NCBI GenBank assembly: GCA_041661305.1
Contig: JBAZUR010000001.1
Location: forward strand, 387,684-451,683
DNA from: Minisyncoccota bacterium
Lineage (GTDB): Bacteria; Patescibacteriota; Minisyncoccia; Phycocordibacterales; VMEP01
DNA length: 64,000 bases
Direction: 5' to 3'
The first letter of the stretch is position 1, and every line of letters starts with the position of its first letter. The notes beneath the pieces are model-generated. The model worked only from the letters and a program-made list of their open reading frames with translations, ran no database searches and was not told where the DNA came from. Both the position numbers and the translations under genes were made by a program. Below are positions 8,466 to 40,067 of this stretch, one piece after another.

Positions 8466-10946
8466 TTACTCACCGTGACACTTCTTGTATTTCTTGCCAG
8501 AACCACATGGGCAAGGGTCATTACGTCCCACCGGCGCTTTAACTTGCGTCTTAGTCGAATCGGCTTCTTTTGAAACACCACCAGCGCTCAAAACGCTCGG
8601 ATTTTCGTGCAATTCAACAGTTTCTATTTGTTCTTTATGCGCGAGACCACTATCTCCTTTAATAAACTTAATTGTTGACGAAAGATTCAACCTAAAAGAG
8701 ATTTCCATTTCCTTAAATAGCTTGAGTCCTTCTTTTTTGTATTCAACCAAGGGATCTCGCTGTCCATATCCCCTTAAACCAACAGAAGAGCGCAAATAGT
8801 CCATTATCTCCAAGTGTTCAAGCCAAAGCATATCGTTTGTATAGAGGGCGAGTTTTCGGAATTCTTCGTAAAACTTTTCATCACCCAACTCTTTTTGTTT
8901 TTCTTCAATTTCTTTTTTGGCCTCTTCACTCTCAAGTTTTATTTCCTCAACCAAAGCATTGATGTATTCACGCTCTCCAAAAAGCATTTTTTCGCGACGA
9001 GTATAAACCACGCCACGCTGGTGGTTCATAACGTTATCGTACTCAAGCAAATGTTTTCGTGAATCAAAATTAAAACCTTCAATTTTTTCCTGTGCTCCTT
9101 CAAGCGCACGACTAACCATTTTGTTTTCTATTGGCTGGTCCTCAGGAATTCCAAATCGCCCCATCATGTTTTTTATCATGTCAGAGGCAAAGACGCGCAT
9201 TAGCGAGTCTTCGAGCGAAACGTAAAACTGAGTTTCTCCTGGATCCCCCTGTCGCCCAGCGCGCCCACGAAGCTGATTATCAATTCGTCTCGCTTCGTGT
9301 CGTTCGGTACCAATAACCGCGAGTCCACCCAAATCCCGAACCGCTTCATACGTTTCTTTAGTGTGAGGATTTCCTCCAAGTTTAATATCAACACCGCGAC
9401 CAGCCATGTTTGTCGCAATAACAACATTCCCCTTCTTCCCAGCTTGCGCAATAATTTCTCCTTCGCGTTCGTGGTTTTTAGCGTTCAACACTTCATGCGG
9501 AATACCTTCACGTTTAAAATACTCGGAAAGAATTTCATTTCTATCAATTGAAGCTGTTCCAATAAGGACTGGCTGACCTCTTTGATTAAGTTCTTTAACG
9601 CGCGCAGTTAATGCTTTCCACTTTCCAGTCTCAGTTTGAAAAATCAAATCATTCCTATCAAGGCGTTTAATGTCACGGTGTGTTGGTATTGCGATAACTT
9701 CAAGACCATAAACTTTAAAAAATTCTTCTGTGCTCGTCATTGCCGTTCCGGTCATACCAGAAAGCTTCCCGTATAGTCTAAAATAATTCTGGAATGAAAC
9801 GGAGGCCAGAGTTCGTGACTCGCGCTCAATATGAACATTCTCTTTTGCTTCTATGGCCTGATGCAAACCCTCTGACCAGCGTCGGCCTGGCTGAAGACGC
9901 CCTGTAAATTCATCAACAATAACAATCGCATTATCTTTGACCACGTACTCTTTATCCTTCTCAAAAAGTGCCTTAGCACGCACGGCGGTTTCTAGGTGAT
10001 GAACATACTTAATACCCTTTTCAGTGTAAAGATTGTCTATTTTGAGGGCCTTTTCTGCCTTATTGATACCACTATCAGTCATAGCGATGGACTTACTCTT
10101 TTCATCAACGGTATAGTCTTCCTCTTTTTTCATCTGCGAAGCAATACGTGCAAAAGTACGGTACAAATCTTCAGATTCTGCTGCTTGCCCAGAAATAATA
10201 AGTGGTGTGCGCGCCTCATCAATCAAAATAGAGTCGATTTCATCAACGATTGCGTATGCGTGTCCACGCTGAACGAGTGTTTCTTTGTCATACGCCAAAT
10301 GGTCTCGCAAATAATCAAAACCAAATTCATTGTTTGTGCCGTAAGTTATGTCAGCATGATATGCCTCACGTCTACTACACGGTCTTAAAAATTCATGAAC
10401 AACATGGAATGACCCTGTTAAGTCGCGCTCTGCATCTTCTTCTTTGTGTTCAGGGTCATATATAAATGACGATTCGTGGTTGATAATACCAACAGAAAGA
10501 CCGAGCGCTGAATAAATTTGTCCCATCCAAACACCGTCACGACGCGCGAGGTAATCATTCACCGTAACAATATGAACTCCTTCTCCTGTTAACGCATTTA
10601 AATATGCAGGTAACGTCGCAACAAGAGTCTTACCTTCTCCCGTTCGCATCTCTGCAATGTTTCCTTTGTGCAAAACAATTCCCCCAATGACCTGAACGTC
10701 ATAATGGCGCTCACCTAGCGTACGCTTCGCAGCTTCTCGAACAAGCGCAAAAGCCTCCGGCATAATATCATCGAGTGTTTCACCTTTTGTAAGTCTATCT
10801 TTAAACTGAGCTGTCTTTTGACGCATCTCATCAAGAGACAAATTTGCAACATCTTTTTCGCATTCCGCAACCTTCAAGACGTCACGACTAAGGGCTTTTA
10901 CAGCCTTTTCACTAGTTGTTCCGAGTATTTTTTCCAAGAAAAGCAT
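8466..10946 (-). CDS. secA: Preprotein translocase ATPase SecA
   Basis: 826 aa with DEAD-motor motifs (MRTGEGKTLVATLPAYLNAL, TGTA...), and a C-terminal zinc finger CPCGSGKKYKKCHG. Confidence 0.95.
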   Translation of the reverse strand: MLFLEKILGTTSEKAVKALSRDVLKVAECEKDVANLSLDEMRQKTAQFKDRLTKGETLDDIMPEAFALVREAAKRTLGERHYDVQVIGGIVLHKGNIAEMRTGEGKTLVATLPAYLNALTGEGVHIVTVNDYLARRDGVWMGQIYSALGLSVGIINHESSFIYDPEHKEEDAERDLTGSFHVVHEFLRPCSRREAYHADITYGTNNEFGFDYLRDHLAYDKETLVQRGHAYAIVDEIDSILIDEARTPLIISGQAAESEDLYRTFARIASQMKKEEDYTVDEKSKSIAMTDSGINKAEKALKIDNLYTEKGIKYVHHLETAVRAKALFEKDKEYVVKDNAIVIVDEFTGRLQPGRRWSEGLHQAIEAKENVHIERESRTLASVSFQNYFRLYGKLSGMTGTAMTSTEEFFKVYGLEVIAIPTHRDIKRLDRNDLIFQTETGKWKALTARVKELNQRGQPVLIGTASIDRNEILSEYFKREGIPHEVLNAKNHEREGEIIAQAGKKGNVVIATNMAGRGVDIKLGGNPHTKETYEAVRDLGGLAVIGTERHEARRIDNQLRGRAGRQGDPGETQFYVSLEDSLMRVFASDMIKNMMGRFGIPEDQPIENKMVSRALEGAQEKIEGFNFDSRKHLLEYDNVMNHQRGVVYTRREKMLFGEREYINALVEEIKLESEEAKKEIEEKQKELGDEKFYEEFRKLALYTNDMLWLEHLEIMDYLRSSVGLRGYGQRDPLVEYKKEGLKLFKEMEISFRLNLSSTIKFIKGDSGLAHKEQIETVELHENPSVLSAGGVSKEADSTKTQVKAPVGRNDPCPCGSGKKYKKCHGE

Positions 10947-11605: not shown

Positions 11606-12643
11606 TTAAAAATTACCAACAAGACAAACCTCAAATTCAAGTTGCACACCAAAAACATCGAAAACTTTTTTCTGTATATCTTTAGCTAAAGAAAAAACTT
11701 CGCTCGATTTTCCTTCTCCATAATTAACAAGTACCAAAGCGTGTTTTTCATATATACCAACACCGCCATTTCGTAATCCTTTTTCGCAGCCAGCATTCTC
11801 AATAAGCCAACCAGCGGAAAGTTTTTTCAAGTCAGAATCGTTAGTCGAAAACACTGGTATCGTTTTATATTTTTCAACTAAGAAGTCTACTTGTTTTTTC
11901 TCAATCGTAGGATTTTTAAAAAATGAACCAGCGGTTCCAAATAGGGACAAATCTGGCAACTTACGCTTCCGAATAGCAAGAACCGCCTCTCGAATGTCTA
12001 GGGCTGTGGCTTTATCCTTCCCAACACCCCTCGTCAAAAGTTCGCTCAAAATTTCTGAATGTTCAATATTCTGCTTTGTGCTTCTTGAAACAGAAAATGC
12101 GACCTCTGTAATTATTAAATGTCTTCCAAGGTCTTTTTTAAAAATACTATCGCGATATCCAAAAGCACATTCTTCTTTTAGAAATTTTTTACTTTTTTTA
12201 GTCCGGACATCAAAAGTGTTTACCCACTCAATATGTGAAGAAACCTCACTCCCGTATGCTCCAATATTTTGAACAGGAGCCGCTCCAACTGTACCGGGAA
12301 TACCAGAAAGAAACTCAAAACCAGAAAAACCAATTTCAATTAAGTGTTGAACAAGGCTGTCCCACGACTCCCCTGCTCCGACAACAACAATTGTTTTTCC
12401 GTCATTTTCTTCAACCGAAATACCACGTAAACAAATCTTCATTACTAACCCAGAAAAACCGTTATCAGCAACTAGTAGATTTGATCCCCCTCCAAGAATA
12501 AAAATTGGTAAATTATTTTTCTCAACAAACAAAACCGCTTCATTAATATCTTCAACTGAATTTATTTCACAAAAATAGCGCGCCTTTCCTCCGGTATGAA
12601 ATGTTGTTAAGTCCTTAAGTAAAATATTTTCCCTTATCGTCAT
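11606..12643 (-). CDS. murB: UDP-N-acetylenolpyruvoylglucosamine reductase
   Basis: 345 aa. It has an FAD-binding N-terminus (TFHTGGKARYFCEI, ILGGGSNLLV) and a MurB C-terminal domain. Confidence 0.85.
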   Translation of the reverse strand: MTIRENILLKDLTTFHTGGKARYFCEINSVEDINEAVLFVEKNNLPIFILGGGSNLLVADNGFSGLVMKICLRGISVEENDGKTIVVVGAGESWDSLVQHLIEIGFSGFEFLSGIPGTVGAAPVQNIGAYGSEVSSHIEWVNTFDVRTKKSKKFLKEECAFGYRDSIFKKDLGRHLIITEVAFSVSRSTKQNIEHSEILSELLTRGVGKDKATALDIREAVLAIRKRKLPDLSLFGTAGSFFKNPTIEKKQVDFLVEKYKTIPVFSTNDSDLKKLSAGWLIENAGCEKGLRNGGVGIYEKHALVLVNYGEGKSSEVFSLAKDIQKKVFDVFGVQLEFEVCLVGNF

Positions 12644-13119
12644 GTATAAAATATTACCCGCAATCTTGGCTGGTAAGTGTTGGCTCCCAAAACAAATGTC
12701 TTATATGAGTGCGTTCACCAGCCAAGGCTACAGGCAACATAGAATAAGTATAATGGTATTTTTTATTTTTGTCTTGAAAATTTTTATTTTATTTGCTTTT
12801 AAAATGCACGTATAATTTTCTGCTGAAAATTTACTATACTCGCGCCAGTCGCGCTCCGTAATGCATTTTAAAAGCAAACGTTAGGGATTTCCTTAAGAAA
12901 ATACAAAGAAAAATGGCAACGCAAACTCACAAATCAGTCCGAATACGGACTGTTCGCGAGCCCACCTCGCCGCCCAACAAAGAAACGGCTAAGAGCCGCT
13001 TTGTTGGGGCCCGTCTCCGGTCGTTTTGCTCCCGTTTTGTTCACGTTACCACGTGATTACAAAACGCAGTCCTGTGCGTTTTTTGTTCTAAAACAACCAA
13101 TGCTTCGCATTGGTAAAAG

Positions 13120-13152
13120 AACAAAAAACGCAAAACCCCGCCGAGGCGGGGG
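13120..13152 (-). terminator. Intrinsic terminator for the 783-aa gene (ccccgcc-gag-gcggggg hairpin followed on the minus strand by ttttgcgtttttt)
   Basis: GC hairpin with a T-tract, read on the reverse strand about 85 nt after the stop at 13238. Confidence 0.7.
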
Positions 13153-13237
13153 CTTACGCAGACATTCGTGCTTTAAGAACAAACACAAAAGCACTCATAC
13201 ACACAATACTAGCAGAAACTAGAGAAAAGTCAAGTTT

Positions 13238-15589
13238 TTATGGGTTTCTCCCGGCTTCTATTTCCTGAATGTAATAATCCCCTTGTGCCTTAAATCCAGG
13301 ATTTATTTCTATAATCCTTTTTATTAACTCAACAGACCTCGCCCTGTCTCCAATCTGAAGATATGTTGCCGCAAGAGTTAAAAGTGTTTGAGGGTCATTT
13401 GGGTTATTTTTTAATTGAGTTTCCAAAACAGAACGTAGTTTTTGATAATTACCAGTTGAGGCATATGCGCTAATAAGTCTGGTATCCATGGCTGTGTATT
13501 CCCCCAAAAGGGCTTCTGCCTCATTTGCTTTACCTCCATAAATTAAAGATGCGGCATAAATAACTCGAGCGTCATCGTATGTTGGATCTCCTTCGTAAGC
13601 TTGTTTTAAGACGTCAATCGCCTTACCAAATTCCTTCATGTTTATATAAGTAGTACCAAGCTCAAATAATACTTGTTGCTTCTTTGGAGAAATAGTACGT
13701 GCTTTTTCAAGATAAGTAACAGCTTCTCCAAACTGAGAGTAGTTATTCATCAATCCTCCCAAAAATAATGGGTAGCGCACATCAAGCGGACTATCTTCAG
13801 ACTGTTTAATCATTTCGTTGCGAGCCAAATTAACAAACTTCTGCTTTGCTTCAATAGGGACATTCGCTTGATTTAGTCTAAGTGAGATTTGTATCAACTG
13901 TTCGCGCGCTTCCCCACTTCCAAAGGTATTGTAGGCAAAAGTTTTTTCGAAATACTCGAAATTTTTATTCAACCCACCATCCGTTTCTCCGTGTGGTGAT
14001 ATCGCCTGAATCAATGCTTTTGAAGCAAAAATTGGTTTTACGTTCACAAAATACATAACCAAAACAAATCCGATTAATACGACTGGAACAAAAACAGAAT
14101 TAAGGGAACCTTCTTCCTTTTTTGCTTCAATATTTGTCATTCCTTCCTTGAGTGCCATAACGCTAATGAACCCTAATGTTGAGAAAAACAATATATAACT
14201 CACAAGGTTATCGAAAACAAAAAGATTGTGGAAAAAATACGCCCCGAAAAGACCAGTCAAAATACTCTTCTCAGCAACCGTAAAGGTAGATGTAAATTTC
14301 CACAAAGAATAAAGTGCTACTGCAAACATTGAAAGGTACGAAAGAAGACCAAGAAAACCAGCAGCTATTAACCAATCAAAGAAAACATTATGAGAACGGT
14401 CAAACCACGGTTCCTGACTCCACATTTTTGGGTTGTAATGTTTTGCAAAAACAACAATAAAGTTATCTTGCCCCCAACCCAAAAGCGGATTCTCTTTAAC
14501 CCCCTGCCAACTCATATTCCAAATCATAAAACGTGATTTGGTTGTTTGCTCGTCAAAAGAGATTGTAGAAAATCTACTTAAAACTGGGCTGGTGCTGATT
14601 ATTGGATTATTTTTAAACGCAATAAAAAGCCCGACAAACAAAACAACGGCAGTCAGTGTTCCAATTGCTATGTTTTTAACAAAACGATTTTCTCGATTAA
14701 ACCAAGCAATTAAAACTGAAGACAAAGAAACGCCGGCAATAAGACCCAAAATCGCTCCACGAGTAGCGGTATAATAAAGTGCAATCAAAGCCAAAGCGGT
14801 GATAGCACCATAAAGAACACGGCGAATAGTAATATTTTCCCTCTTCGTAAAATAAAAATATGCGAGCACTGGTAATCCAACTAAAGAGATTCCAAAAAAT
14901 ATCTTTCCGTAAAAACCAAGAGCCAGTGTGCTACTTACCACTCGAGTCAAACCAAAAATTGAGAGCAAAACAAAACCAACAAACGCTGAGTAGTAAATAT
15001 CTATCGAACCCTTACATTTATTTCTGACAAACCAAAAGGCCAACAGGAAAATATTAATCAAAAGAAAAACCGCAAAGTAGGTTGCGTTACCTAAGGTTGC
15101 ATCAGCACGGGTGCTCCCCTGGTTTATTGTTAACTCTCCGTGAACCTGCATAAAAGAATACATCGTCAGAAAAAAATTCACTCCAAACAAAACGTGAAAA
15201 AATTTCTCCCACAATCTTTCTGTCGCCATAACCGTCGTCACAACAAAAAAATACGCTGCGATATGTAGCAGAGAAACAAGACCTTCCATTCGTTCATAGT
15301 TTGACCAAAAACTACGGTATGTGTTTACTCCAAAAATATCAGCGAGAGCGACAATGCCGACAAATATTGCGACGGCTATGGCAATCCAATTTTTCTTCGG
15401 ACGATACGATGCGTCATAATAAACAAGAAGCAACCAAGCAGCAAATATAATTTCAACAATAATGCGGAAAGTAAAATTTTTCCCAGTAATAAATGGAAAA
15501 AACATTGAGCTTGAGATTATAAGCGGAATAAAAGGAACGAGAAAAATACCGCTGATAATAAAGTTTCTTAAAAAATTTTGAGGTACCAT
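13238..15589 (-). CDS. Wzy_C (O-antigen ligase / PglL-like) polytopic membrane protein fused to C-terminal TPR repeats
   Basis: About 12 TM helices. The Wzy_C signatures YYTATRGAILGL (T/SRGA) and DRSHNVFFDWLIAAGFLGL (HN..l...G..G) are present. The last 230 aa or so are TPR-like (AYASTGNYQKLRSVLETQLKNNP...). Confidence 0.75.
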   Translation of the reverse strand: MVPQNFLRNFIISGIFLVPFIPLIISSSMFFPFITGKNFTFRIIVEIIFAAWLLLVYYDASYRPKKNWIAIAVAIFVGIVALADIFGVNTYRSFWSNYERMEGLVSLLHIAAYFFVVTTVMATERLWEKFFHVLFGVNFFLTMYSFMQVHGELTINQGSTRADATLGNATYFAVFLLINIFLLAFWFVRNKCKGSIDIYYSAFVGFVLLSIFGLTRVVSSTLALGFYGKIFFGISLVGLPVLAYFYFTKRENITIRRVLYGAITALALIALYYTATRGAILGLIAGVSLSSVLIAWFNRENRFVKNIAIGTLTAVVLFVGLFIAFKNNPIISTSPVLSRFSTISFDEQTTKSRFMIWNMSWQGVKENPLLGWGQDNFIVVFAKHYNPKMWSQEPWFDRSHNVFFDWLIAAGFLGLLSYLSMFAVALYSLWKFTSTFTVAEKSILTGLFGAYFFHNLFVFDNLVSYILFFSTLGFISVMALKEGMTNIEAKKEEGSLNSVFVPVVLIGFVLVMYFVNVKPIFASKALIQAISPHGETDGGLNKNFEYFEKTFAYNTFGSGEAREQLIQISLRLNQANVPIEAKQKFVNLARNEMIKQSEDSPLDVRYPLFLGGLMNNYSQFGEAVTYLEKARTISPKKQQVLFELGTTYINMKEFGKAIDVLKQAYEGDPTYDDARVIYAASLIYGGKANEAEALLGEYTAMDTRLISAYASTGNYQKLRSVLETQLKNNPNDPQTLLTLAATYLQIGDRARSVELIKRIIEINPGFKAQGDYYIQEIEAGRNP

Positions 15590-15617
15590 GAATTGTTTTT
15601 AATTGTTAATTTAACAA

Positions 15618-15646
15618 CCAAAATCAAGGGGTCCCCTTGATTTTGG
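15618..15646 (-). terminator. Perfect 13-bp stem hairpin (ccaaaatcaaggg/cccttgattttgg) 77 nt downstream of the 1121-aa gene; terminator-like
   Basis: Read directly. The flanking T-tract on the minus strand is modest (ttgtt). Confidence 0.5.
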
Positions 15647-15722
15647 TGACGCACATTTATCGTAAGATTTTACCACAGCTTCGAACTTTACACACAAGGA
15701 GCGCAAAACCATCCCCCAAGAA

Positions 15723-18700
15723 CTAAAACTCAAAGAAATTAACCCTACAATCCGCTCTACATGTAGATGGATTCTCACCCTTGGAAGCCTGGCATCTATC
15801 GTCGCCACACGATGTACCCAATTGACGACAGACACCATCTGAATCGCACACTGTACCCACAGAGCTACACGAAGCGCTTGCGCCACTATACTCACCAGCG
15901 CAAGTCCATGTCCAAGATAACGCTGGGTCACTTTCTGGTAAGATATTAATATCTTCAGGTAAAACAACTGGTCCTGGTAATCCTACTGTGTTACAAAGAC
16001 CAGAAGTTGGTTTCTTTTGAGTTGGAGCACCATTAGCCGAACCACAGACTCCTGGTATTGGGTCTGGTGTAGTAACAACCAGTTGACGACCCTGACAAAA
16101 AGATGGCCATGTACTGGACCACGCCCCAGAATCATCTTGGGCCCTGAAAAAAATCCAATATGTTCCGGGAACAAACGAACGAGCAAAGCTTGTTAGGGAG
16201 CTAATGAGCGTGCCTGAGGTGCAGTTACCGAGTCTCCATTCATAAGCTACTATAGAGCCGTCAATGTCGGCATCTGTTGCTGCCCCAGAAAATTGCTGTG
16301 ACTGAGAACTGTTTATTGTAATGTTCGTAGCGGGACTAATCATTGTTGCTGTTGGTGTTTTGTTTTTATACGCACGACATGTCGGATTTGCTCCATTTAT
16401 TCCACGACAATCCCACTGATAGCGATCAGTAAAATTCCAAACAAAACCAGGAGTACCAGTATTACAAAGACCAGATGTTGGAGCGGTTGTTAATCTTGTA
16501 GTCCCATCAGCTGGACCACATGAACCATTAACTATGGTGGTCACGATACTTACAGTCTTAAAGACGTTTGCAGACTGATTATTATTAGAATCTTGTGTTC
16601 TTACATAAAAAACTTTAGTTCCAGTTGTATTCCATGTACGACTAATTGTCTGCGGGGTTCCAGATGGAACATATCCGATAGCAGGAGCCCATTCATCAAT
16701 TACCGTGTCGAAGTTCCAATCAAATCCATACCTAACATTATCACCATCAATATCTGTTGCAGTAGCTGTAAAACTAACAGGGGTATTCACAAGACTAGGG
16801 TCCTGATAAACAAGAGTTGGTGTGCTTGGCAAATTGCTTGGAGGAGCAGCGGTAAACGAGTAAGAGAGACTCATAGCTGGAACGCTATAACTAAGACCGC
16901 CCGAACGACCATACTGCCCTGTCTGTCTACCATCATAACTAATAAATTGCCCTGCCCTAAGAGAACCGTTCGTAGCCGGATATGCAATATTCATGCTTAT
17001 TGATTGCCCAGAAGAAGCTGTAACTATGCAATCAGAATAAAAAGGGCTGTAACTCACAACAGTGGCACACCACATGGGATCACCAGGATACTGCGAGCAG
17101 AAAAAACTATTATATGGACCACTTGTTCTCACCCCACCCAAAGTAGCTCCACAACTAAGACCACTTCCAGAAACAGAAAACGATGGTGGTATGGTGGCCA
17201 TATCTCCTTGGTAAATGATGTAATACCAACCACCAGAAACATAATTAATGTTAGTGCACTCGTTATATGTTGTACAAGATTTAGCAGAAGTATCCCACCG
17301 TCCATAAGGAGAGTCATATTCACCGCCCGTACCAACCCAAGAGCTAGCGCCACTACTTGGGTTCCAGGTTACACGAACAGTAGCACCGGTTGGAATTGAA
17401 GAACCATCGAGCACCTCTGACCCAAAAAGAGTTACTGTGGCGTTGTATAAAACTGTCGCTGTTATTCCCGCGACCCCATAACCAGTCGGATTGGCAGACC
17501 CTTCGCTAAAACCGAGTATTGGTAACCCAAATGACGTCCCAACACTCTTCGCCTCTACTGTTGTAGGAGCTATGAAAGAAGAGCCGAGAAAAATTAGAAT
17601 TAGTGTGAGAGAAATCGGTAATTTTTTTCTACCTTTTAAAACTGCCCACAAAACATAAATAATGGATAAAATAATTAAACCACCTAAAATAATAGCGCCT
17701 GTATTTGTTTTTTTAGGACAGATGTCAGGATTGATATCGCGACAATCATAGACCTCTTTCACCTCCTCGACTACCTCTCCTTTGTGTTTAAGCGTGGCAG
17801 TCAGAGAAAACGTTGTGTAATTTTTCTTCGGCGTAAACAAATCTTTTACACCCATCATTGCGCTCGTGATATTACCTGCATACTCATAGGAGTGAATCAA
17901 TCTACCTTTTTCATCATTTAGCGTTAAGGTAAGAGTATTATCTTTGACCACACCGTCGCTAACTGCGTGAACACAAGAGAAAAGCGTATTTTCTTTATTC
18001 TTTTCGAGTGGATAGCTCATGATGCTTGGAAAATTTATTCTTGTTTCCTCAATGCCATCACGAACAAAACGAATATTAAGAATTGATTTACTTGGACCAT
18101 CGTTTGTTTCTACTACAAGATAAGAAACAATCGCCCCTGTTGGTAATGCGGAATATGAAATTTCTTTAACTTCTTCGGGTTTAAGTTTAATAGACTCTGT
18201 TTTTGTGTCCTTAAGATTTTCTTCACGAAGACCATCCCAATTATAAAGTTTCCAAACGACAGGTACTGTCACTGATTCGTTCTTAGGATTTACAAGCTTA
18301 ACAACAACGCTCACTGGCTCATCTTTTGAAAAATGAAGTGGAAAAGCAGCAAAACGGTGTGGTTGTTTGTTTAGGGTAACAGTACTCTTGTCGAAAGTGA
18401 CAACGCTAATCTTTCGGTCGCTAACAACAGAAAAATAAACCTGATTCCCGACTACGTCGTCAGTAAAAGAAAGTCCTAAAAGATTGTAGCGCTTAGCAGT
18501 TTGAAAAAAGAAAGATGCAATATAATCTCCAGCTGGGGTGTTGTCTGGAACTTTCCATAAAAATGACGTCTTCTTGCTTCCGTTTGCTGGAATATTGAAA
18601 GTTTCATCAAGTGAAAACTGGTCAACCAAATCAAAACCATTCTCTTGGTCAAAATTTTCTCCCGCTTGCTGTCTAAATATTTTTACATAAACCTGGCCAT

Positions 18701-19088
18701 TAACTATCGGGTATGGATTGGCGTTTTTTATTTCACCAGGAAACCCGATTGTCGCGCCGGGAACAGTCTGGGTAAGTGTAGTCGGAAGATCAACCTGAAC
18801 AGACCCAAAATGGTAATAATCAAAACAATCAACTGCCCCCTCGGGGGAAGTCCCAGAGGTATCAATACCAGAAGGATTACTCAAAAGAATAAAAGAGGTC
18901 ATCTTTTCTTTTTCTTCATTTGTCCAAGTCTTTTGGTCTTTCTTTAAAATAGCCTGTATCTCAGCTGGAGCGTCCTCTATATTAACTGTCGGTGTGCTAG
19001 GTGACGAAGGAGTTGTCACTTGAGCTTGCGACAATAGTGCTGATGTAAAAAGTAACAAAAATAAAACAAAACCGAAAAGTTTTTTCAT
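15723..19088 (-). CDS. Large secreted/surface protein (1121 aa): signal peptide, approximately 450-aa beta-rich domain, hydrophobic hairpin (two adjacent TM segments), then a Cys/Gly/Ser/Trp-rich region with PKD/Ig-like repeats
   Basis: N-terminal MKKLFGFVLFLLLFTSALLSQAQ. The hydrophobic hairpin is TGAIILGGLIILSIIYVLWAVLKGRKKLPISLTLILIFLGSSFIAPTTVEA. Repeated DIDGDNVRYGFDWNFD and DADIDGSIVAYEWRLGNC are PKD-like, and there are more than 40 Cys in the C-terminal half. Confidence 0.7.
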   Translation of the reverse strand: MKKLFGFVLFLLLFTSALLSQAQVTTPSSPSTPTVNIEDAPAEIQAILKKDQKTWTNEEKEKMTSFILLSNPSGIDTSGTSPEGAVDCFDYYHFGSVQVDLPTTLTQTVPGATIGFPGEIKNANPYPIVNGQVYVKIFRQQAGENFDQENGFDLVDQFSLDETFNIPANGSKKTSFLWKVPDNTPAGDYIASFFFQTAKRYNLLGLSFTDDVVGNQVYFSVVSDRKISVVTFDKSTVTLNKQPHRFAAFPLHFSKDEPVSVVVKLVNPKNESVTVPVVWKLYNWDGLREENLKDTKTESIKLKPEEVKEISYSALPTGAIVSYLVVETNDGPSKSILNIRFVRDGIEETRINFPSIMSYPLEKNKENTLFSCVHAVSDGVVKDNTLTLTLNDEKGRLIHSYEYAGNITSAMMGVKDLFTPKKNYTTFSLTATLKHKGEVVEEVKEVYDCRDINPDICPKKTNTGAIILGGLIILSIIYVLWAVLKGRKKLPISLTLILIFLGSSFIAPTTVEAKSVGTSFGLPILGFSEGSANPTGYGVAGITATVLYNATVTLFGSEVLDGSSIPTGATVRVTWNPSSGASSWVGTGGEYDSPYGRWDTSAKSCTTYNECTNINYVSGGWYYIIYQGDMATIPPSFSVSGSGLSCGATLGGVRTSGPYNSFFCSQYPGDPMWCATVVSYSPFYSDCIVTASSGQSISMNIAYPATNGSLRAGQFISYDGRQTGQYGRSGGLSYSVPAMSLSYSFTAAPPSNLPSTPTLVYQDPSLVNTPVSFTATATDIDGDNVRYGFDWNFDTVIDEWAPAIGYVPSGTPQTISRTWNTTGTKVFYVRTQDSNNNQSANVFKTVSIVTTIVNGSCGPADGTTRLTTAPTSGLCNTGTPGFVWNFTDRYQWDCRGINGANPTCRAYKNKTPTATMISPATNITINSSQSQQFSGAATDADIDGSIVAYEWRLGNCTSGTLISSLTSFARSFVPGTYWIFFRAQDDSGAWSSTWPSFCQGRQLVVTTPDPIPGVCGSANGAPTQKKPTSGLCNTVGLPGPVVLPEDINILPESDPALSWTWTCAGEYSGASASCSSVGTVCDSDGVCRQLGTSCGDDRCQASKGENPSTCRADCRVNFFEF

Positions 19089-19160
19089 GTTAACTAAAGT
19101 ATAACATCCGTTTTCATTTTTAAAGACGAATTATACACAGGTTCAACTTTCCTTCAGGCG

Positions 19161-22100
19161 CTATGGTTCAACACCATATACCCAATTGAGAACGCCGTAT
19201 CTTTGATGTGGTGGGGTTGTTGTGACTGTTCCAGTAAAAAAGTTATTAAAAGATATTCTCTCTGCGCTGTTAACCAACCCTCCAGATCTAAGCGGACTTT
19301 CGTAAATAACAGCAAAATAATTTGCGCCCGAAACAAAATTACTTGGATTTATATTAAACAACTGTCCATATTCCGCACTCGTCCCCATATCTAATCCGTA
19401 GATACTAGTTGAACTACCGACTACCCCCTTATACAAACCAGCTACTTTCTGTCCAGTCAAAGAATCCGTCAAAAAACGACAATTATAATAAGACGAGCCC
19501 GAACGGGTCGGAACGTAATACCCTCCCTCCATAAAACTTGCTGTTTGTGGATCACAATAGAAACCAACTTTCCCCATACTGATACTGTTTCGTGTCTTTG
19601 GGGTTCCATTAATAATATTTCCGTCTTTGTCATGTCCCGCCAAATAAGAACCGTCGTTGGTCCCCCAATTATTTTTATCACTTCCAATCGTATCGACATG
19701 TTTTCTTTCCATTGTTTTGTAGTCCGGAGAACCACTACCACCGCACCAACCACTACAATCCGCCAAAACCGGAGTCTGGTCGATAGTTGTAGTTGAAGCA
19801 CCTCCGCCAAAATTTAAACTCAAAACTTCCCCGTCATTTGCAAGTCCAGACCCTCCACCAGTTCCACTGAATGGAACAGGCAAATCAATCGAAACGTCAG
19901 AAAAAATATCCCCTGCTTCACCGCGCCCTATCAAAAAATATCCGTACGCTGGTATGGTTCCTGAAAGCGAGATGTGTGGAGTGCCGTCTTCGGCGGATAT
20001 ACTAAAACCAGATAGGTTAAGTGGTAAATTGGTTCTATTTTTTAACTCAATCCATTCGTCGTATGACGACGCATCAGTTCCCGCCCAAGCAACTTCATTA
20101 ATTACAATTGGCATATAGCTTGCGGTGAAATATGCAGTATTGCCAACAGTGGACAAATCGCGGTTTCCAAAAATACTCACCGCCACAACTTTTATATCGT
20201 ACGGCCCTGCTGTTGTGGGGATAACAACAGAAGTATCGCTTGTCGTGGTAATAGTTGAAAATCCAGTCAAACTTGTGCCTTTGATTATTTCAAAATAACT
20301 ATAGTTAGGCGTACTTGCCGACCAAGAAATAGTAGCTTGTCCTTCCGGAAGAAAGCACGACTGCGGTGGTGCCTGTAAAGAGTTGGCACATTCTAGAACG
20401 CTCACGTTTGTTGCTCTTGGTTGTATTGTGTAAACATTAAAAATAGCGTCTCGTGAAACAGAGGTGTTGCCATCTTGATCGACAGCAAAAAACTTTATCG
20501 TTGTTGTTCCCTCCGGCAAATCAGAAAATGAAAGCGACCATGTGCTAGTAGAAGAAGCGACTACTGTCGCGTTGTTAAAATCATTTCCTATTGTAAATCC
20601 AGGCGTTGAAGTTCCAGAAAAAGTAACGGAATTTGTGCGTAGTTGTAATGGAAAATTATGTGAGGTAATTGATGGCGGAGAGATATTTGGGACATCAACC
20701 GATAAGGTAATTTCTTGTTGAGCGATGTTTTCATTATCAGGAATTGTTGCAAGAAATCGTATTGTGCTTATGCCATTTGGAAAATCAGAAATGGTAATAG
20801 ACCAGTCCCCTGTTTCTAATGAAGTTGTGGTGGATTGCGAATATGAATTTGAAATTGTTGCACCAGGAGTGGATGTGCCTGAAAATATTATAGTTGTCTC
20901 AGTAAACGCGTTAGAAAAATCGCTTGGTGATATAACGGAAATAAAAACCGAACTAGCTTGCGAAACTTCTGTTATCGATGTTTCTTCCTCCGTCGCCTGT
21001 TCTGTAGCCGGCGTTGTAATTACTGGGGCTGACACTGGCGCTCCACCGCCAAAACCAGGAGAAAAACCACTTCCAAAATTTATTTTTGGCATAGGAATAT
21101 TATCTGTGACTGGTGTTGGGGGTGTTTCTGTTGAAGTTGTTTGTTTTTGCACTTGAGGTTCTGTCTCTGTCTCGCTTGGTTGAGCAATAATCTGCTCAGC
21201 ATCTTGAGTGACTGGTGTGTTATTTTCTGAAGCTAAAACCGAAGTGGTGTCTGATTTTTGTTCCTCCGTTGGTATTTGTTGAACTTGCGCATCATTTGCT
21301 GTGGCGAGAACAACGGCCGCACCAGAATTTGAATCGCCAAAGGCTAGGTCTGTGGCGGCGCGTATTCCAGAACCAATCGTTGACGCAATATTTTTAATAG
21401 CACCCACCGTAGCGACACCGGCAGAGTAAACACCTCCCGCCGTTTCAACTACAACAGTTTTTGTTGTGTCCGCGACAGGATCAATAACAGCCAGCACTGC
21501 TCCTTGTACCTTGTGTGTGGTTGTAAGTTTAGGAGAAGCAATGCATGGCAAATTCTCGTTTTGATTTTTATTTGTCTTTAAATTATCGAGTGAGGATTTA
21601 ATATCAGACACAATTTGGGCGCTACGATACTTCATATAAACATCTGAAAAACTATGTCCGAGCTTATCATCACCATCTTTCAAAATGATTTTGGTATTCG
21701 CCGACATAATTTTCTTAAGCGGAACACTTCCAACAAAATCAGAAATAACTTTATCTGTACTTGAAGTAAGCCATTTTCCACCACCGGCAACACGACTAGC
21801 TGGAGTGGCAACAGAATAAACAGCAATAGAGCCTGCGGAAGCATTCCCGGGTTGTCCAAAAACTTTGTCATGGAAACTGTTGGCATAAAAATTGCCCTGT
21901 GAATGGGCAACGAGAAGCACTTTTTTGGTTTTAACTTTTTCACTCGCAGACTTCAACATCTCAACAAGATCATAATCTTGCACTGTTTCATCTTCAAAAA
22001 TCTTTTGGTATGTGGCGACAAAGGCGTCACCTAAACCACCAACATGAGATGGGTTGAGAAGATATTCATACTTAATTTTTTGGTTATTCCAAACAAAACC

Positions 22101-22274
22101 AACTTTTTTCATGAGTGCCTCCATATTCGCCACGGCGCCACTTTCGTCAGTAAAAACACCGTTTATAGTAGCCACCGTATAACCATCTGGGGAACAGTTT
22201 TTTACGCTAGAAGTAGCGAAAGAGACTGGTGGAAAAAACAAGCCAATGATTAAAAAATTAAATAAAAATTTCAT
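19161..22274 (-). CDS. Large secreted protein (1037 aa): N-terminal alpha/beta-hydrolase (lipase/esterase-like, GxSxG = AHSQG), Ser/Thr-rich linker, Ig-like repeats, lamin-tail domain (LTD), C-terminal domain
   Basis: Signal peptide MKFLFNFLIIGLFFPPVSFA. Lipase elbow KKVLLVAHSQGNFYAN. LTD signature IVINEVAWAGT....DEWIELKN. Duplicated FSGTSTPG...TISN segments. Confidence 0.7.
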   Translation of the reverse strand: MKFLFNFLIIGLFFPPVSFATSSVKNCSPDGYTVATINGVFTDESGAVANMEALMKKVGFVWNNQKIKYEYLLNPSHVGGLGDAFVATYQKIFEDETVQDYDLVEMLKSASEKVKTKKVLLVAHSQGNFYANSFHDKVFGQPGNASAGSIAVYSVATPASRVAGGGKWLTSSTDKVISDFVGSVPLKKIMSANTKIILKDGDDKLGHSFSDVYMKYRSAQIVSDIKSSLDNLKTNKNQNENLPCIASPKLTTTHKVQGAVLAVIDPVADTTKTVVVETAGGVYSAGVATVGAIKNIASTIGSGIRAATDLAFGDSNSGAAVVLATANDAQVQQIPTEEQKSDTTSVLASENNTPVTQDAEQIIAQPSETETEPQVQKQTTSTETPPTPVTDNIPMPKINFGSGFSPGFGGGAPVSAPVITTPATEQATEEETSITEVSQASSVFISVISPSDFSNAFTETTIIFSGTSTPGATISNSYSQSTTTSLETGDWSITISDFPNGISTIRFLATIPDNENIAQQEITLSVDVPNISPPSITSHNFPLQLRTNSVTFSGTSTPGFTIGNDFNNATVVASSTSTWSLSFSDLPEGTTTIKFFAVDQDGNTSVSRDAIFNVYTIQPRATNVSVLECANSLQAPPQSCFLPEGQATISWSASTPNYSYFEIIKGTSLTGFSTITTTSDTSVVIPTTAGPYDIKVVAVSIFGNRDLSTVGNTAYFTASYMPIVINEVAWAGTDASSYDEWIELKNRTNLPLNLSGFSISAEDGTPHISLSGTIPAYGYFLIGRGEAGDIFSDVSIDLPVPFSGTGGGSGLANDGEVLSLNFGGGASTTTIDQTPVLADCSGWCGGSGSPDYKTMERKHVDTIGSDKNNWGTNDGSYLAGHDKDGNIINGTPKTRNSISMGKVGFYCDPQTASFMEGGYYVPTRSGSSYYNCRFLTDSLTGQKVAGLYKGVVGSSTSIYGLDMGTSAEYGQLFNINPSNFVSGANYFAVIYESPLRSGGLVNSAERISFNNFFTGTVTTTPPHQRYGVLNWVYGVEP

Positions 22275-22276
22275 GT

Positions 22277-22903
22277 TTAGCTAACCAACACAGAAACATC
22301 TAAATCACACTCATCTTCAGACACAGAGTAGCTCCCAACGTATTCGTAAAAATTTTTTATATATTTTTTTCTCTCTTCTGTATTTACCTGGCGTTGTTTA
22401 ACAAAATTCTCGTTTTTTTCAGTTTCTGCGGTAAATTTATCCATATCCTCACGTGAACTAATACTCCAAATACATTTAAGTGCCTTACTTTGATTATCCT
22501 CCACGACCGCTGTAGCGGTTTCTCTGTTTAAAACAGGTAAGGTCATCTCAAGTTGTAGTGCGAGTGCGTACTGAAGCAACACCGCTCTAGTTTTCGCCGA
22601 GTTTGGATATTCTTTAAAAATAGCTAGTTCAACGTCATCACGAATTCCGTTTTGGTTGGCGTCAATTCCTGCGACAGTCTTATCTGCCTCAGTCCCCGGG
22701 TCTGGTGGCAAGTTCTTGCCCATTACATCATCCAACGTGAGCTTCGTCGCATGGATTTTTTCAACCTGCACGTTAGTTTTATCTACAGTCCAAAAATAAT
22801 AAGCGCGAACAATTACCAGCGCGACATAAATAATAAAAATAACAACGAGAATTCGTACTAAAATTTTTCTCCACCCCAAATTTAAAATGGACATATTCCC
22901 CAA
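22277..22903 (-). CDS. N-terminally membrane-anchored hypothetical protein (208 aa); stop/start abuts the 1037-aa gene
   Basis: TM helix ILVRILVVIFIIYVALVIV followed by a soluble domain. There is a 2-nt gap to the downstream gene. Confidence 0.5.
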   Translation of the reverse strand: MGNMSILNLGWRKILVRILVVIFIIYVALVIVRAYYFWTVDKTNVQVEKIHATKLTLDDVMGKNLPPDPGTEADKTVAGIDANQNGIRDDVELAIFKEYPNSAKTRAVLLQYALALQLEMTLPVLNRETATAVVEDNQSKALKCIWSISSREDMDKFTAETEKNENFVKQRQVNTEERKKYIKNFYEYVGSYSVSEDECDLDVSVLVS

Positions 22904-22977
22904 ATCTTAACAAACAACGCACCTCATTTCCCTCGCCTTCAACCAAACATGTGGATAACTCAAAAACACATACCCCT

Positions 22978-23027
22978 ATATCCCACTACTATTATTCTGC
23001 TATAGCAGAATAATAGTAGTGGGATAT
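22978..23027. promoter_or_regulatory. Perfect 50-bp palindrome (23-bp arms around a TATA centre), copy 1; candidate operator/bidirectional terminator between the PaaX-like gene and the surface-protein operon
   Basis: Sequence atatcccactactattattctgc-tata-gcagaataatagtagtgggatat is read directly. It shares a 38-bp core with copy 2. Confidence 0.7.
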
Positions 23028-23063
23028 TTGAATAATCAAAAAAACACCCGTTAAGTCACGATA

Positions 23064-23636
23064 TTAATCGGAGATAATAAATTTTCTTTTAAGAGCTTGG
23101 TCGTTCTCTATTTTGTCGGCAATTATATAAAGAACGTCCTTCCCTATTTTAAAATCCGCTTTCATTAAAGTAATCAGGTCTTCGCAGTCATATGGATACA
23201 CCCAAACACTGTCCTGAAGTTTCAAAAAACCGAAACTTTCTAAGGTTCTCCTTAATTTTTCCCTAAGTAATTTTCTCTCTTCTTTAAGGTCGTAAATAAC
23301 AATTCTCCATTTTCCGTCCCATTTTTTTGGTTTAGGTAATTCACCTTCGTCGTACATATAATACAAATGTCTTTCTCCTTCAGGGGTAAGCCTGGCAAAA
23401 GTTCCATTTTGTGTTTTCTCAAATCTAACTAGACCTCTTTCAACAAGACGCGTAACTGAACGTTTCACCCAATAACCATCTTTCCTCAAAATACCCAGCT
23501 TACCAAAAGCTCCGATTACGCTCGGCGCTATCAATGCAACGCTCAATAATCCAGCACCCTTAACAACAGACAAAACGACTTTTTGCACATTTTCTTTTTG
23601 TGTCCGCTTTTTTGATTCTTTTTCGAGAGCTCCCAT
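23064..23636 (-). CDS. PaaX-family-like transcriptional regulator (N-terminal winged helix + C-terminal Cas2-fold PaaX_C-like domain)
   Basis: A wHTH-like segment VTRLVERGLVRFEKTQNGTFARLTPEGERHLYY. The C-terminal WRIVIYDLKEERKLLREKLRRTLESFGFLKLQDSVWVYP has a Cas2/PaaX_C-like beta-alpha-beta pattern. Confidence 0.55.
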   Translation of the reverse strand: MGALEKESKKRTQKENVQKVVLSVVKGAGLLSVALIAPSVIGAFGKLGILRKDGYWVKRSVTRLVERGLVRFEKTQNGTFARLTPEGERHLYYMYDEGELPKPKKWDGKWRIVIYDLKEERKLLREKLRRTLESFGFLKLQDSVWVYPYDCEDLITLMKADFKIGKDVLYIIADKIENDQALKRKFIISD

Positions 23637-23661: not shown

Positions 23662-23719
23662 ATCTTACACTCACTACTATTATTCTGCTATAGCAGAATA
23701 ATAGTAGTGAGTGTAAGAT
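23662..23719. promoter_or_regulatory. Perfect 58-bp palindrome (27-bp arms around a TATA centre), copy 2; sits in the promoter region of the PaaX-like gene
   Basis: Sequence atcttacactcactactattattctgc-tata-gcagaataatagtagtgagtgtaagat is read directly. Confidence 0.7.
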
Positions 23720-23725
23720 GATCTT

Positions 23726-24604
23726 CTATACATTTTTCTGCCAAGAAAAATCTCCGCGTGCAGTTTTTTTGCCGTCTTTTTTTAAGTAGTCTTCCAAAAG
23801 CTCCGAACTTGAACGAACCTTTCCACTTTTACCAATATTGAAAACCATTTCCACTCCCAAATCTTTACAAATTTTCGCTTCTGGTATCGCATCTTCATCT
23901 TTCCTGTCGCCACCGTTAGCAAAAATTTGCGGTCGTATTTTTTCAATTGCCTCCCCCACGTCATCACGATCAGTTTCTAAGATAAAAACATCATCAACAT
24001 GCTTAATCCCTTTTATTAGGGCGGCGCGATCATTTTGGTTCATGAAATACTTTCCTTTTTTACGAATCAACCATGCATCACAATTAATAACAACTATAAG
24101 TTTGTCTCCTAAAGCCTTAGCTTCCTCAAACATCTCTAAGTGTCCTACGTGTATCGGATCAAAACCACCACTAACAACAACTATTTTTTCTTTTTTATCC
24201 ATCTGCAAAACATCTCCGCCCGTCCTGCCGTAATCATCTTCGTATCGAACGATGTCTCCTTCATCAGCAGAGCTACCGTGCACAAGCTCAAAATAAACAC
24301 CGCGAAGCAATCTGTGTTTCTCTTTAGGCTTCACTCTGTAAAAACCAACGTGCCATTCATGGTGTTTATCATCTTCTTCTGTTCCTTGAATCCCTTTACC
24401 GCGAACTATTCTAAAATATATCCCAGGAAGCACGTAGTGTTTGTTTTTAGGTGTAACTTTATACACCCCAAGTTGCCACTCAGTGCGATTATTATGACTC
24501 TGAAGACTTGTCTGCCCACCAACCACAATAAACTTAACCCAGAAATTTTTATGGTGAACAAGCTTCCACATTCTCCCCCATGGTCGTTTTGTATAAAAAG
24601 TCAT
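23726..24604 (-). CDS. Fusion protein: N-terminal tandem cupin modules (mannose-6-phosphate-isomerase type II-like 'RPWG' motif) + C-terminal HxGH nucleotidyltransferase (RfaE/HldE domain-II-like heptose-1-phosphate adenylyl/cytidylyltransferase)
   Basis: KRPWGRMWKL...VKFIVVGGQTSLQSHNNRTEW. There is an internal repeat GVYKVTPKNKHYVLPGIYFRIVRG / GFYRVKPKEKHRLLRGVYFELVHG. The motif VVVSGGFDPIHVGHLEMFEEAKALGDKLIVVIN is the nucleotidyltransferase signature. Confidence 0.55.
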   Translation of the reverse strand: MTFYTKRPWGRMWKLVHHKNFWVKFIVVGGQTSLQSHNNRTEWQLGVYKVTPKNKHYVLPGIYFRIVRGKGIQGTEEDDKHHEWHVGFYRVKPKEKHRLLRGVYFELVHGSSADEGDIVRYEDDYGRTGGDVLQMDKKEKIVVVSGGFDPIHVGHLEMFEEAKALGDKLIVVINCDAWLIRKKGKYFMNQNDRAALIKGIKHVDDVFILETDRDDVGEAIEKIRPQIFANGGDRKDEDAIPEAKICKDLGVEMVFNIGKSGKVRSSSELLEDYLKKDGKKTARGDFSWQKNV

Positions 24605-27111: not shown

Positions 27112-27933
27112 ATGACAAAGGTAACAATTATTAAACCAAAAAAAGTTCTCAGCCTGAGAGATTTTAAAGAACTTTGGGATTACAAAGAGCTCTTGTATTT
27201 TTTTGTATGGCGTGATTTCAAGGTACGCTATAAACAAACCATTATTGGGGTTGGTTGGGCAATATTCCAACCATTTATGACAATGGTCGTTTTCAGTATT
27301 TTTTTTGGAACTCTCTTAAAAATACCTTCTGATAACGTGCCGTATCCAATCTTTGTTTATACAGGACTTCTTTTTTGGCAATTTTTCTCTAGCGCTCTTT
27401 CAGAAACAAGTAGTGTGTTAATTAGTAATCAGGCAATTATAACTAAAGTGTATTTTCCACGACTAATTCTCCCATTATCATCTGTTGCGACAAAACTTGT
27501 TGATTTCGCAATAGCTTCGGTAATTCTTGCAGGAATGATGGTTTATTATGGATATGCCCCACATCTTACGGGATTATTTATCCTCCCCCTCTTACTTGCA
27601 ATCACCTTTATGGCATCTGTTGGTGGTGGATTATTTTTAGCAGCAATAAATGTTAAATATCGCGATGTTCGATATATTCTCCCATTCTTTATTCAGATAT
27701 TAATGTTCCTTACTCCGGTAATTTACCCAGCGAGTATAGCAGGAAAATATTCTTGGATTCTAGCCCTTAACCCAATGATGGGTGTGATTCAATCAGCCCG
27801 AGCAAGTCTCTTGGGAACTGCTCCAATCAACTGGACACTTATTGCGATATCTTTTACCGCCTGCGCAGTACTACTCGCAATTGGTACTATTTATTTCAAA
27901 AAAGTAGAGCGCTATTTTGCAGACATAGCATAA
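27112..27933 (+). CDS. wzm: ABC-2 type polysaccharide export permease (Wzm/TagG-like)
   Basis: Six TM segments, the ABC-2 family pattern (FKVRYKQTIIGVGWAIFQP), and a position directly upstream of the ATPase. Confidence 0.8.
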   Translation: MTKVTIIKPKKVLSLRDFKELWDYKELLYFFVWRDFKVRYKQTIIGVGWAIFQPFMTMVVFSIFFGTLLKIPSDNVPYPIFVYTGLLFWQFFSSALSETSSVLISNQAIITKVYFPRLILPLSSVATKLVDFAIASVILAGMMVYYGYAPHLTGLFILPLLLAITFMASVGGGLFLAAINVKYRDVRYILPFFIQILMFLTPVIYPASIAGKYSWILALNPMMGVIQSARASLLGTAPINWTLIAISFTACAVLLAIGTIYFKKVERYFADIA

Positions 27934-39527: not shown

Positions 39528-40064
39528 TTACTTCTCGTTATAATAATCCCCGTATTCCACCAAGATAGTACTTTTACCGTCCTCTCTTTCTAGGGCCTTT
39601 TTGTACGCAGGAAAAATATCTTCTGGTTCTTCAAGACGAATTATCTCAACATTTGGACACATCAGACGAAACGCTTCGGTATAATCACCTATGTGCTGAA
39701 ACTGTGGGTGCATAGGGCGGACAGAACCAATGCCGGTACGTATAATAACTTTTGGCTGATAGCCTCCGTTTGACATAATAGACAATTTGTCTAAATGATT
39801 AACCAGCTGGTTTGTTCCTACAAGCAAAAAATTCCACCTTGGGAAAATACTTACTGGGACGTGCCCAGCTAACGCAAGCCCGATAGACATTCCCATCTGC
39901 ATTTCCTCAGCAACTGGAAGTTCTAAAAGTTTTTCTTTTGGAACATTTTTAAGTGTTGTGGTCATTGCAGTTCCTGGACACGCCACTGCCTGCCCAATAA
40001 AAAAAGACCTTTCATCTTGTGCAATCATTTCCATCGCGCGACTAAGTTCTTCAAAATATTTCAT
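39528..40064 (-). CDS. TPP-dependent enzyme beta-like subunit (transketolase pyrimidine-binding domain only; lacks the C-terminal domain)
   Basis: 178 aa. SFFIGQAVACPGT...EEMQMGMSIGLALAG is the Transket_pyr pattern. Confidence 0.6.
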   Translation of the reverse strand: MKYFEELSRAMEMIAQDERSFFIGQAVACPGTAMTTTLKNVPKEKLLELPVAEEMQMGMSIGLALAGHVPVSIFPRWNFLLVGTNQLVNHLDKLSIMSNGGYQPKVIIRTGIGSVRPMHPQFQHIGDYTEAFRLMCPNVEIIRLEEPEDIFPAYKKALEREDGKSTILVEYGDYYNEK

Positions 40065-40067
40065 AAG

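Follow-up and report, generated by a model that had tools for sequence, protein, structure and literature searches.

We analyzed a 64,000-nt stretch of contig JBAZUR010000001.1 of a Minisyncoccota bacterium (hereafter the window), which belongs to a metagenome-assembled genome (MAG) of the Paceibacterota, a lineage of the candidate phyla radiation (CPR). Our main subject is a gene for a 783-aa protein that combines a Wzy_C domain with C-terminal TPRs and that is referred to below as the ligase. It is preceded on the minus strand by genes for a PaaX-like protein, a 208-aa transmembrane (TM) protein and two very large proteins, a 1037-aa LTD protein and a 1121-aa Cys-rich protein, which we call the giants (Table 1). 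A first-pass annotation of this DNA had described these genes as running without meaningful gaps and had interpreted regulator, TM protein, giants and ligase as one dedicated machinery for an S-layer-like glycoprotein coat. All five open reading frames (ORFs) are present exactly at the coordinates that it gave. The spacers, however, measure 160 nt (PaaX-like gene to TM gene), 2 nt, 72 nt, 133 nt and 594 nt. The labels PaaX-like, LTD and Wzy_C plus TPR were confirmed, whereas the PKD assignment is weak and sub-threshold. None of the five proteins (190, 208, 1037, 1121 and 783 aa) was assigned to a specific NCBIfam family. Close homologues all derive from Patescibacteria/Parcubacteria MAGs, and the 1037-aa protein is identical to NCBI WC724_02120 from a 'Candidatus Paceibacterota' MAG.

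Table 1. Positions of the genes, RNAs and other elements of the window that are discussed in the text.
Feature	Position	Strand	Evidence or remark
Wzy_C-TPR protein (ligase), 783 aa	13238-15589	-	Pfam Wzy_C 3.9e-21 and C-terminal TPRs
Hairpin between 1121-aa gene and ligase gene	15615-15650	-	terminator-like, weak U tract
Cys-rich membrane protein with PKD-like part, 1121 aa	15723-19088	-	PKD 0.0034, below Pfam cutoff
Secreted LTD protein, 1037 aa	19161-22274	-	Pfam LTD 2.1e-8
N-terminally anchored membrane protein, 208 aa, TTG start	22277-22903	-	TM segment residues 9-40
Palindrome copy in the 160-nt gap	22982-23023		perfect, 42 bp
PaaX_M/Cas2-like winged helix-turn-helix protein, 190 aa	23064-23636	-	Pfam PaaX_M 2.5e-20
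Palindrome copy upstream of PaaX-like gene	23670-23711		perfect, 42 bp
Nucleotidyltransferase (CTP_transf_like, RfaE domain II-like) bordering the glycan locus	23726-24604	-	same place in L003
Glycan biosynthesis and export locus, ~39 kb	25005 to at least 63872 (window end)		Pfam scans
Wzm	27112-27933		Pfam scans
Wzt with Wzt_C domain	27938-29200		Pfam scans
RNA A, own promoter and intrinsic terminator	13122-13233	-	promoter TTGACT-N17-TAGTAT 13233-13206
RNA B, promoter and 88-nt hairpin	12651-12775	-	promoter AAGACA-N17-TATACT 12775-12747
MurB	11606-12643	-	conserved downstream neighbour of ligase
SecA	8466-10946	-	conserved downstream neighbour of ligase

The comparative set comprised 80 species-level Paceibacteria loci (L009-L088) with 10-kb flanks. 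Flanking genes were scored using tblastn and phmmer with the window proteins and two Wzx sequences as queries. Upstream counts refer to the 63 loci with at least 5 kb of upstream sequence and downstream counts to the 46 loci with at least 5 kb of downstream sequence. For 67 species-level loci we counted how often a giant adjoins the ligase, taking as a giant any ORF of 900 aa or more that immediately precedes the ligase gene on its strand.

The Wzy_C-TPR ligase and its glycan island

The Wzy_C assignment of the 783-aa protein was borne out by profile, fold and catalytic residues alike. The Pfam profile (PF04932) matched residues 263-419 with 75.9 bits against a cutoff of 31.7. The AlphaFold2 model (pLDDT 90.5, pTM 0.88) predicts 15 TM helices, a catalytic loop at residues 325-401 and a TPR domain at residues 539-778, arranged in a membrane fold of many helices like that of WaaL, including the large extracytoplasmic loop. 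WaaL of Cupriavidus metallidurans (PDB 7TPJ) was the best structural match at a sequence identity of 15%, while the TPR domain on its own matched the TPRs of OGT best. In an alignment of 68 homologues R277, R339, R353, D397, R398, H400 and D405 were invariant, and the family profile placed R277, R353 and H400 on R215, R288 and H338 of E. coli K-12 WaaL (L092) in a weak hhalign alignment (E 0.13). These three WaaL residues are reported to be essential and to be conserved in PglL as R224, R298 and H349 (PMC3643930). The C-terminus of the ligase, E-I-x-A-G-R-N-P, is nearly invariant across the family (13238-13261 in the window). In addition, H400-N-x9-G411-x2-G414 agrees with the WaaL motif H[NSQ]x9Gxx[GTY]. 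In this lineage and several others an insertion of ~65 aa (residues 193-255 here) accounts for two extra TM helices. Sequence and model together make us confident that the 783-aa protein is an enzyme of the WaaL/PglL superfamily with the full catalytic residue set.

Sequence searches outside this family returned little. The membrane domain found nothing among PDB sequences with phmmer, a PDB profile search was dominated by the TPRs, and tblastn against plasmids gave only two weak matches to cyanobacterial O-antigen ligases. The orientation of the protein was deduced from its charge distribution, as Lys and Arg make up 28% of the predicted inside loops and 5-8% of the outside ones. This pattern agrees with the positive-inside rule and puts residues 325-401 and the TPR domain outside; if the catalytic loop is extracytoplasmic as in WaaL, the TPR domain is predicted to face outward too.

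Full-length homologues of the ligase number in the thousands and are 40-50% identical across Paceibacteria, with at least 543 matches in species-representative genomes. We analyzed what surrounds the gene in these organisms. The glycan locus reported by the first-pass annotation is real: it extends from 25005 to the end of the window, encodes Wzm/Wzt export and is rich in methyltransferases. Pfam scans identified Gmd, several epimerases, a rhamnosyl O-methyltransferase-like gene, DegT, glycosyltransferases of families GT2, GT4 and GT11, a GtrA-fused GT2, an AsnB-like gene, heptose-pathway-like genes, a B12-radical S-adenosylmethionine (SAM) gene and at least seven methyltransferases. No initiating transferase of the WbaP or WecA type was seen within the 64-kb window.

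Three genes of the locus are unusual (49531-51225 on the plus strand, 39528-40706 and 40829-42370 on the minus strand). They concern a 564-aa ORF that matches nothing in Pfam or NCBIfam, a split thiamine pyrophosphate-dependent (transketolase/E1-like) pair and a B12-binding radical SAM enzyme, and jointly they point to unusual sugars, branched or C-methylated.

Across Paceibacteria, the upstream side of the ligase gene carried Wzx in 20/63 loci (directly adjacent in 13), Wzm/Wzt in 19/63 and Gmd in 27/63, and at least one of the three was found in 48 of the 63 (76%). Wzx and ATP-binding cassette (ABC) export never occurred together (0/63). The downstream side carried SecA in 42/46 loci and MurB in 30/46, the latter as the immediate neighbour in 24. 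The ligase gene thus stays in place at the flank of a hypervariable glycan island, which varies freely in content and in export route. These data support an evolutionary tie between the ligase and loci for glycan synthesis and export. Because Wzx and ABC export never co-occur, one enzyme would serve both export routes, as expected of a ligase.

Taken together, the conserved Paceibacteria ligase probably attaches exported glycans to a surface acceptor. Overall we lean towards a reading in which the region consists of independent units, among them a class-wide ligase that is most likely a general O-oligosaccharyltransferase (O-OTase). According to this reading, the glycan would be assembled on undecaprenyl phosphate by the enzymes of the locus, capped by methylation and exported via Wzm/Wzt. 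At the outer face of the membrane, the Wzy_C-TPR enzyme would then take the glycan from undecaprenyl diphosphate and transfer it as a whole to an acceptor held at or close to the extracytoplasmic TPR domain, and this acceptor would be Ser, Thr or Tyr of a protein, as for WsfB and WsaB. The PaaX-like gene would form a separately bracketed unit, and the 1121-aa protein would belong to a different family of envelope proteins. Fold, catalytic residues, topology and synteny counts are what the data show; the donor, the acceptor class and the transfer to protein are what we infer, and on the acceptor class being protein we are evenly divided.

A protein seems to be the most likely acceptor because the cells lack lipopolysaccharide (LPS) and because enzymes of the LytR_cpsA_psr (LCP) type are present separately in related genomes. 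The first-pass annotation had preferred an S-layer-like coat to an LPS O-antigen as fitting a CPR-type envelope, and the organism is indeed a Paceibacterota MAG; CPR cells have no outer membrane but do possess S-layers (bioRxiv 10.1101/2020.05.14.094862). No lpx or kdt genes were found within the 64-kb window. LCP proteins of ~540 aa are encoded on the Paceibacteria contigs L093 (1-927) and L094 (1-842). LCP enzymes are the usual ligases to peptidoglycan, and judging from these sequences Paceibacteria possess, in addition to the Wzy_C-TPR enzyme, a glycopolymer ligase directed at peptidoglycan. The idea that the Wzy_C-TPR enzyme replaces LCP as the peptidoglycan ligase was down-weighted in view of the LCP genes in related genomes.

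Several points weigh against a general protein O-OTase. Neither PglL_A (PF15864, searched with the membrane domain) nor Wzy_C_2 matched the ligase even at E<=10. Glycoproteins are not known from any Paceibacterium. The LCP genes were found in other Paceibacteria and not in the window. The high conservation of the ligase and its invariant EIxAGRNP terminus would also fit a single acceptor that is not a protein. The recurrence of one pair of surface-protein genes beside the ligase (see below) is an exception to the independence of the units and may reflect some functional coupling. Finally, TPRs alone do not prove a protein acceptor, as extracytoplasmic TPR domains, such as those of PgaA and BcsC, also serve as scaffolds in polysaccharide export.

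Alternatively, the enzyme may be a ligase of the WaaL kind that acts on something other than a protein, be it a membrane glycolipid anchor (giving a lipoglycan), a peptidoglycan precursor or peptidoglycan itself, with the TPR domain binding the polysaccharide or a partner from cell-wall synthesis. WaaL itself is the best structural match, the class-wide conservation and the invariant C-terminus suggest one conserved acceptor, synteny with murB is tight, and TPR domains are scaffolds of polysaccharide export in other systems (a work cited in PMC2943079). On the other hand, the murB linkage may be ancestral gene order since secA is linked equally, CPR bacteria lack a lipid A-core, and Paceibacteria have separate LCP ligases. 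We also know of no Wzy_C enzyme that has been shown to ligate to peptidoglycan. We regard this alternative as unlikely, although it is the main competitor of the favoured reading.

The favoured reading of a general O-OTase can be extended to a single class-wide protein O-OTase of Paceibacteria that decorates S-layer, pilus and large surface enzymes, including both giants, with the glycan of the island. This extension is tentative and we would not bet on it. If true, no protein glycosylation system would have been defined in CPR bacteria before it, and episymbionts would have in it a swappable 'glycan coat' cassette that matters for attaching to hosts and evading phages. CPR bacteria are uncultivated episymbionts whose surface mediates attachment to the host. 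A conserved ligase that anchors a hypervariable island offers both a gene for heterologous expression and a marker for surface-glycan loci in thousands of MAGs.

The giant proteins and their neighbourhoods

The 1037-aa protein consists, in this order, of a signal peptide, a Ser-hydrolase head, a linker rich in Ser, Thr, Pro and Glu, immunoglobulin-like repeats, the LTD and a conserved C-terminal domain that contains Cys. Ser/Thr-rich segments had been pointed out in the neighbours of the ligase, and one is indeed present here (residues ~325-480, up to 45% Ser plus Thr per 40-aa segment). The label 'hydrolase' found no support from Pfam or NCBIfam, and a profile search of the head against the PDB returned just one non-significant lipase match (E 0.36). 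It is nevertheless plausible from other evidence. Thirteen homologues all keep S125, which lies in an AHSQG nucleophile elbow, together with D174 and H207, and the AlphaFold model, which is of moderate quality (pLDDT 66), gave a weak Foldseek match to cutinases and small lipases (E ~1e-3), suggesting a cutinase/lipase-like Ser hydrolase. A lipase-like surface enzyme is worth noting, as CPR organisms are reported to be unable to make fatty acids.

The family of the 1037-aa protein is large and is held together by the LTD and a C-terminal module of ~300 aa (up to 65% identity). The N-terminal heads of these LTD giants (~1000-1400 aa) are swapped, being cutinase/lipase-like here and of the beta-helix/NosD type elsewhere. 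A TM protein of ~200 aa always precedes them (L003, L007, L089, L090 and L091), and in L089, L090 and L091 the pair adjoins rplJ/rplL and not a ligase gene. The best explanation is that the genes of the 208-aa and 1037-aa proteins make up a portable cassette for a surface enzyme. Another giant and a TPR protein of ~280 aa are often encoded just ahead of this cassette.

The 1121-aa protein is built differently. A signal peptide and an N-terminal ectodomain are followed by a TM hairpin (461-487, 489-512) and a Cys-rich PKD-like C-terminal ectodomain, and the protein contains 26 Cys. The second helix of the hairpin resembles a cleavable signal peptide (TVEA|KS). Because of this helix we considered that the ORF might represent two fused genes and rejected this, as an orthologue of 65% identity keeps the continuous architecture including the TM hairpin. 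The family is widespread and is found directly after ftsA-ftsZ and before nrdR-comEC in L093 (8001-11258) and L094 (8001-11156). This placement hints at a role in division or in the envelope.

How closely are the giants linked to the ligase? Only 5 of 67 loci have a giant as the immediate upstream neighbour of the ligase. L003, with a ligase of 79% identity, lacks the 1121-aa gene but keeps the PaaX-like gene, the TM gene and the LTD giant. The TM-LTD pair stands directly upstream of the ligase in three locus groups, namely this genus (L003/L009, L010), L015, and L007 with L075; L007, L015 and L075 are Lloydbacteria-like genomes. The best explanation is that the giants came to lie beside the ligase by local rearrangement and are not its obligate partners. 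A general O-glycosylation system may nonetheless use them as substrates along with many others, although no finding singles them out.

These observations bear on the proposal of one dedicated machinery for an S-layer-like glycoprotein coat. The genes are adjacent and co-oriented, the 1037-aa protein has its Ser/Thr-rich linker, the TM-LTD pair recurs beside the ligase, and the S-layer gene of Geobacillus stearothermophilus is found close to its S-layer glycan (slg) cluster (PMC2943079). Against this stand the rarity of the arrangement, the missing 1121-aa gene in L003 and the other conserved homes of both giant families near rplJ/rplL and after ftsA-ftsZ. Moreover, the hairpin between the 1121-aa gene and the ligase gene, which the first-pass annotation had noticed and which folds at -21.4 kcal/mol (z -4.3), separates the ligase from the giants together with the 133-nt gap, and between the regulator and the TM gene lie a palindrome and the 160-nt gap. 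Neither the enzyme head of the one giant nor the TM hairpin of the other is a feature that resembles a lattice-forming S-layer protein. We therefore consider a dedicated machinery very doubtful, and the adjacency of giant genes should not be read as a functional system in annotation.

The palindrome just mentioned is perfect (hairpin -38.5 kcal/mol), and its two copies flank the PaaX-like gene. The PaaX orthologue of L003 is likewise flanked by palindromes (L003 5316-5361 and 5989-6030), which differ in sequence; the downstream one has the GCTATAGC centre in common with the window palindrome. The core of the window palindrome had no match in any other locus. The palindromes may act as operators or as insulating terminators, or they may mark the ends of a small cassette.

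Least probable of all is that the 783-aa protein is a Wzy-type polymerase elongating repeat units linked to undecaprenyl diphosphate: Pfam Wzy_C does include some polymerases and a Wzx flippase gene lies beside the gene in 20/63 loci, but the catalytic residues match the ligase/O-OTase set, the Wzm/Wzt systems of 19/63 loci and of the window export a polymer that is finished in the cytoplasm and needs no Wzy, and the enzyme is neither confined to Wzx-dependent loci nor does it vary with the repeat unit, as Wzy polymerases normally do, being 40-50% identical across the class despite wholly different glycan loci. A ligase or oligosaccharyltransferase is much likelier because the enzyme accompanies ABC-type loci that require no polymerase.

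A small RNA pair between the ligase gene and murB

In relatives with ligases of only 77-79% identity, the 594 nt that separate the ligase gene from murB are 95-100% identical. This spacer contains two elements with promoters of their own, RNA A and RNA B. The hairpin that had been taken for the ligase gene's own terminator (13151-13136) is in fact the terminator core of RNA A, a conserved and separately promoted unit with a transcript of ~78 nt (~13199-13122). From its 5' end, RNA A consists of AUGAGUGC ((A/G)UGAGUGC), a variable hairpin, ACGAAUGUCU and an intrinsic terminator. Promoter and terminator stem are conserved in 17 distant loci, with covariation in the stem. RNA B (12738-12651) ends 7 nt before the murB ATG. 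In its hairpin 91% of cells were paired compared to ~41% in slid controls, and compensatory changes were found in 25 of 28 pairs.

Covariance models (E<=0.01) recovered RNA B in 41 loci and RNA A in 39 when 90 sources were searched, and the matches were always near the 3' end of the ligase gene. Loci with RNA A or B include L003, L005, L007, L015, L016, L023, L036, L062 and ~30 others. RNA B ends within 40 nt of the start of an ORF of 310-361 aa in 21/41 loci, and in most of these 21 the ORF was labelled MurB by tblastn. Rfam gave nothing at gathering thresholds in the window and only chance-level matches upstream of murB. A divergent signal recognition particle (SRP) RNA was considered for RNA B and not adopted, as RNA B lacks a GNRA loop, SRP motifs and an Rfam match.

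RNA A and RNA B are separate transcripts because they are sometimes found on opposite strands. Two motifs of RNA A are complementary to the apical loop of RNA B, and the complementarity covaries, with six variant pairs for motif 2 and three for motif 1. Cognate A/B duplexes had a mean of -9.3 kcal/mol compared to -5.0 kcal/mol for non-cognate ones, and 0 of 5000 permutations reached the observed mean. The order of the motifs corresponds to a bimolecular H-type pseudoknot. On the basis of these sequence patterns, the pair likely acts in riboregulation of murB. A small RNA that pairs with a hairpin in the murB leader in about half of the Paceibacteria loci would be a rare conserved riboregulator of CPR bacteria.

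Relation to known glycosylation systems

The ligase maps onto a known kind of system, and databases already list its family under the name 'O-antigen ligase family protein'. In CPR genomes this name cannot mean ligation to LPS. WaaL has no TPR domain, and CPR cells, having no outer membrane, are not expected to contain the lipid A-core that WaaL uses as acceptor. The fusion of a transferase for lipid-linked or nucleotide sugars to a TPR array that selects protein substrates is also seen in the eukaryotic enzymes TMTC1-4 and OGT. This is an analogy only, as their catalytic domains are unrelated and they work in a different cellular compartment.

PglL/PilO (TfpO) of Proteobacteria have a Wzy_C core with the same essential Arg/Arg/His as the 783-aa protein. 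The P-x-x-G-x-G of the ligase (P368, G371, G373) is spaced like P313, G316 and G318 of PglL, which have been listed as PglL-specific (PMC3643930); we take this spacing as a lead only. PglL/PilO are relaxed in their use of donors, and the same is implied for the CPR enzyme by the variable neighbouring loci. The 783-aa protein differs from them in its far larger TPR domain at the C-terminus and in three additional TM helices. In 21 of 31 cases PglL genes lie beside the gene of a pilin or another target (PMC3643930), while no pilin family was found among the neighbours in the window or in L003-L008.

The closest likeness is to the slg clusters of G. stearothermophilus NRS 2004/3a and Paenibacillus alvei, which belong to bacteria with a monoderm envelope, as here. 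The S-layer O-OTase WsfB of P. alvei is a Wzy_C protein with C-terminal TPRs, and the O-OTase WsaB is a Wzy_C protein that works with a separate TPR protein, WsaA; in either case the glycan is exported by Wzm/Wzt and capped by 2-O-methylation, and the cluster includes an AsnB homologue (PMC2943079). The 783-aa protein shares the architecture of WsfB and lies next to an slg-type cluster, a likeness that concerns architecture and cluster content as described in PMC2943079. The window locus parallels the slg clusters in its Wzm/Wzt with a C-terminal domain on Wzt, in its methyl-capped glycan, predicted here from the methyltransferase genes, and in its AsnB homologue, and in both cases the O-OTase or its counterpart stands at the cluster edge. 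No S-layer gene was identified here. What sets the CPR enzyme apart from the slg enzymes is that it is class-wide and keeps a fixed chromosomal position, while the neighbouring island switches between Wzx and ABC export.

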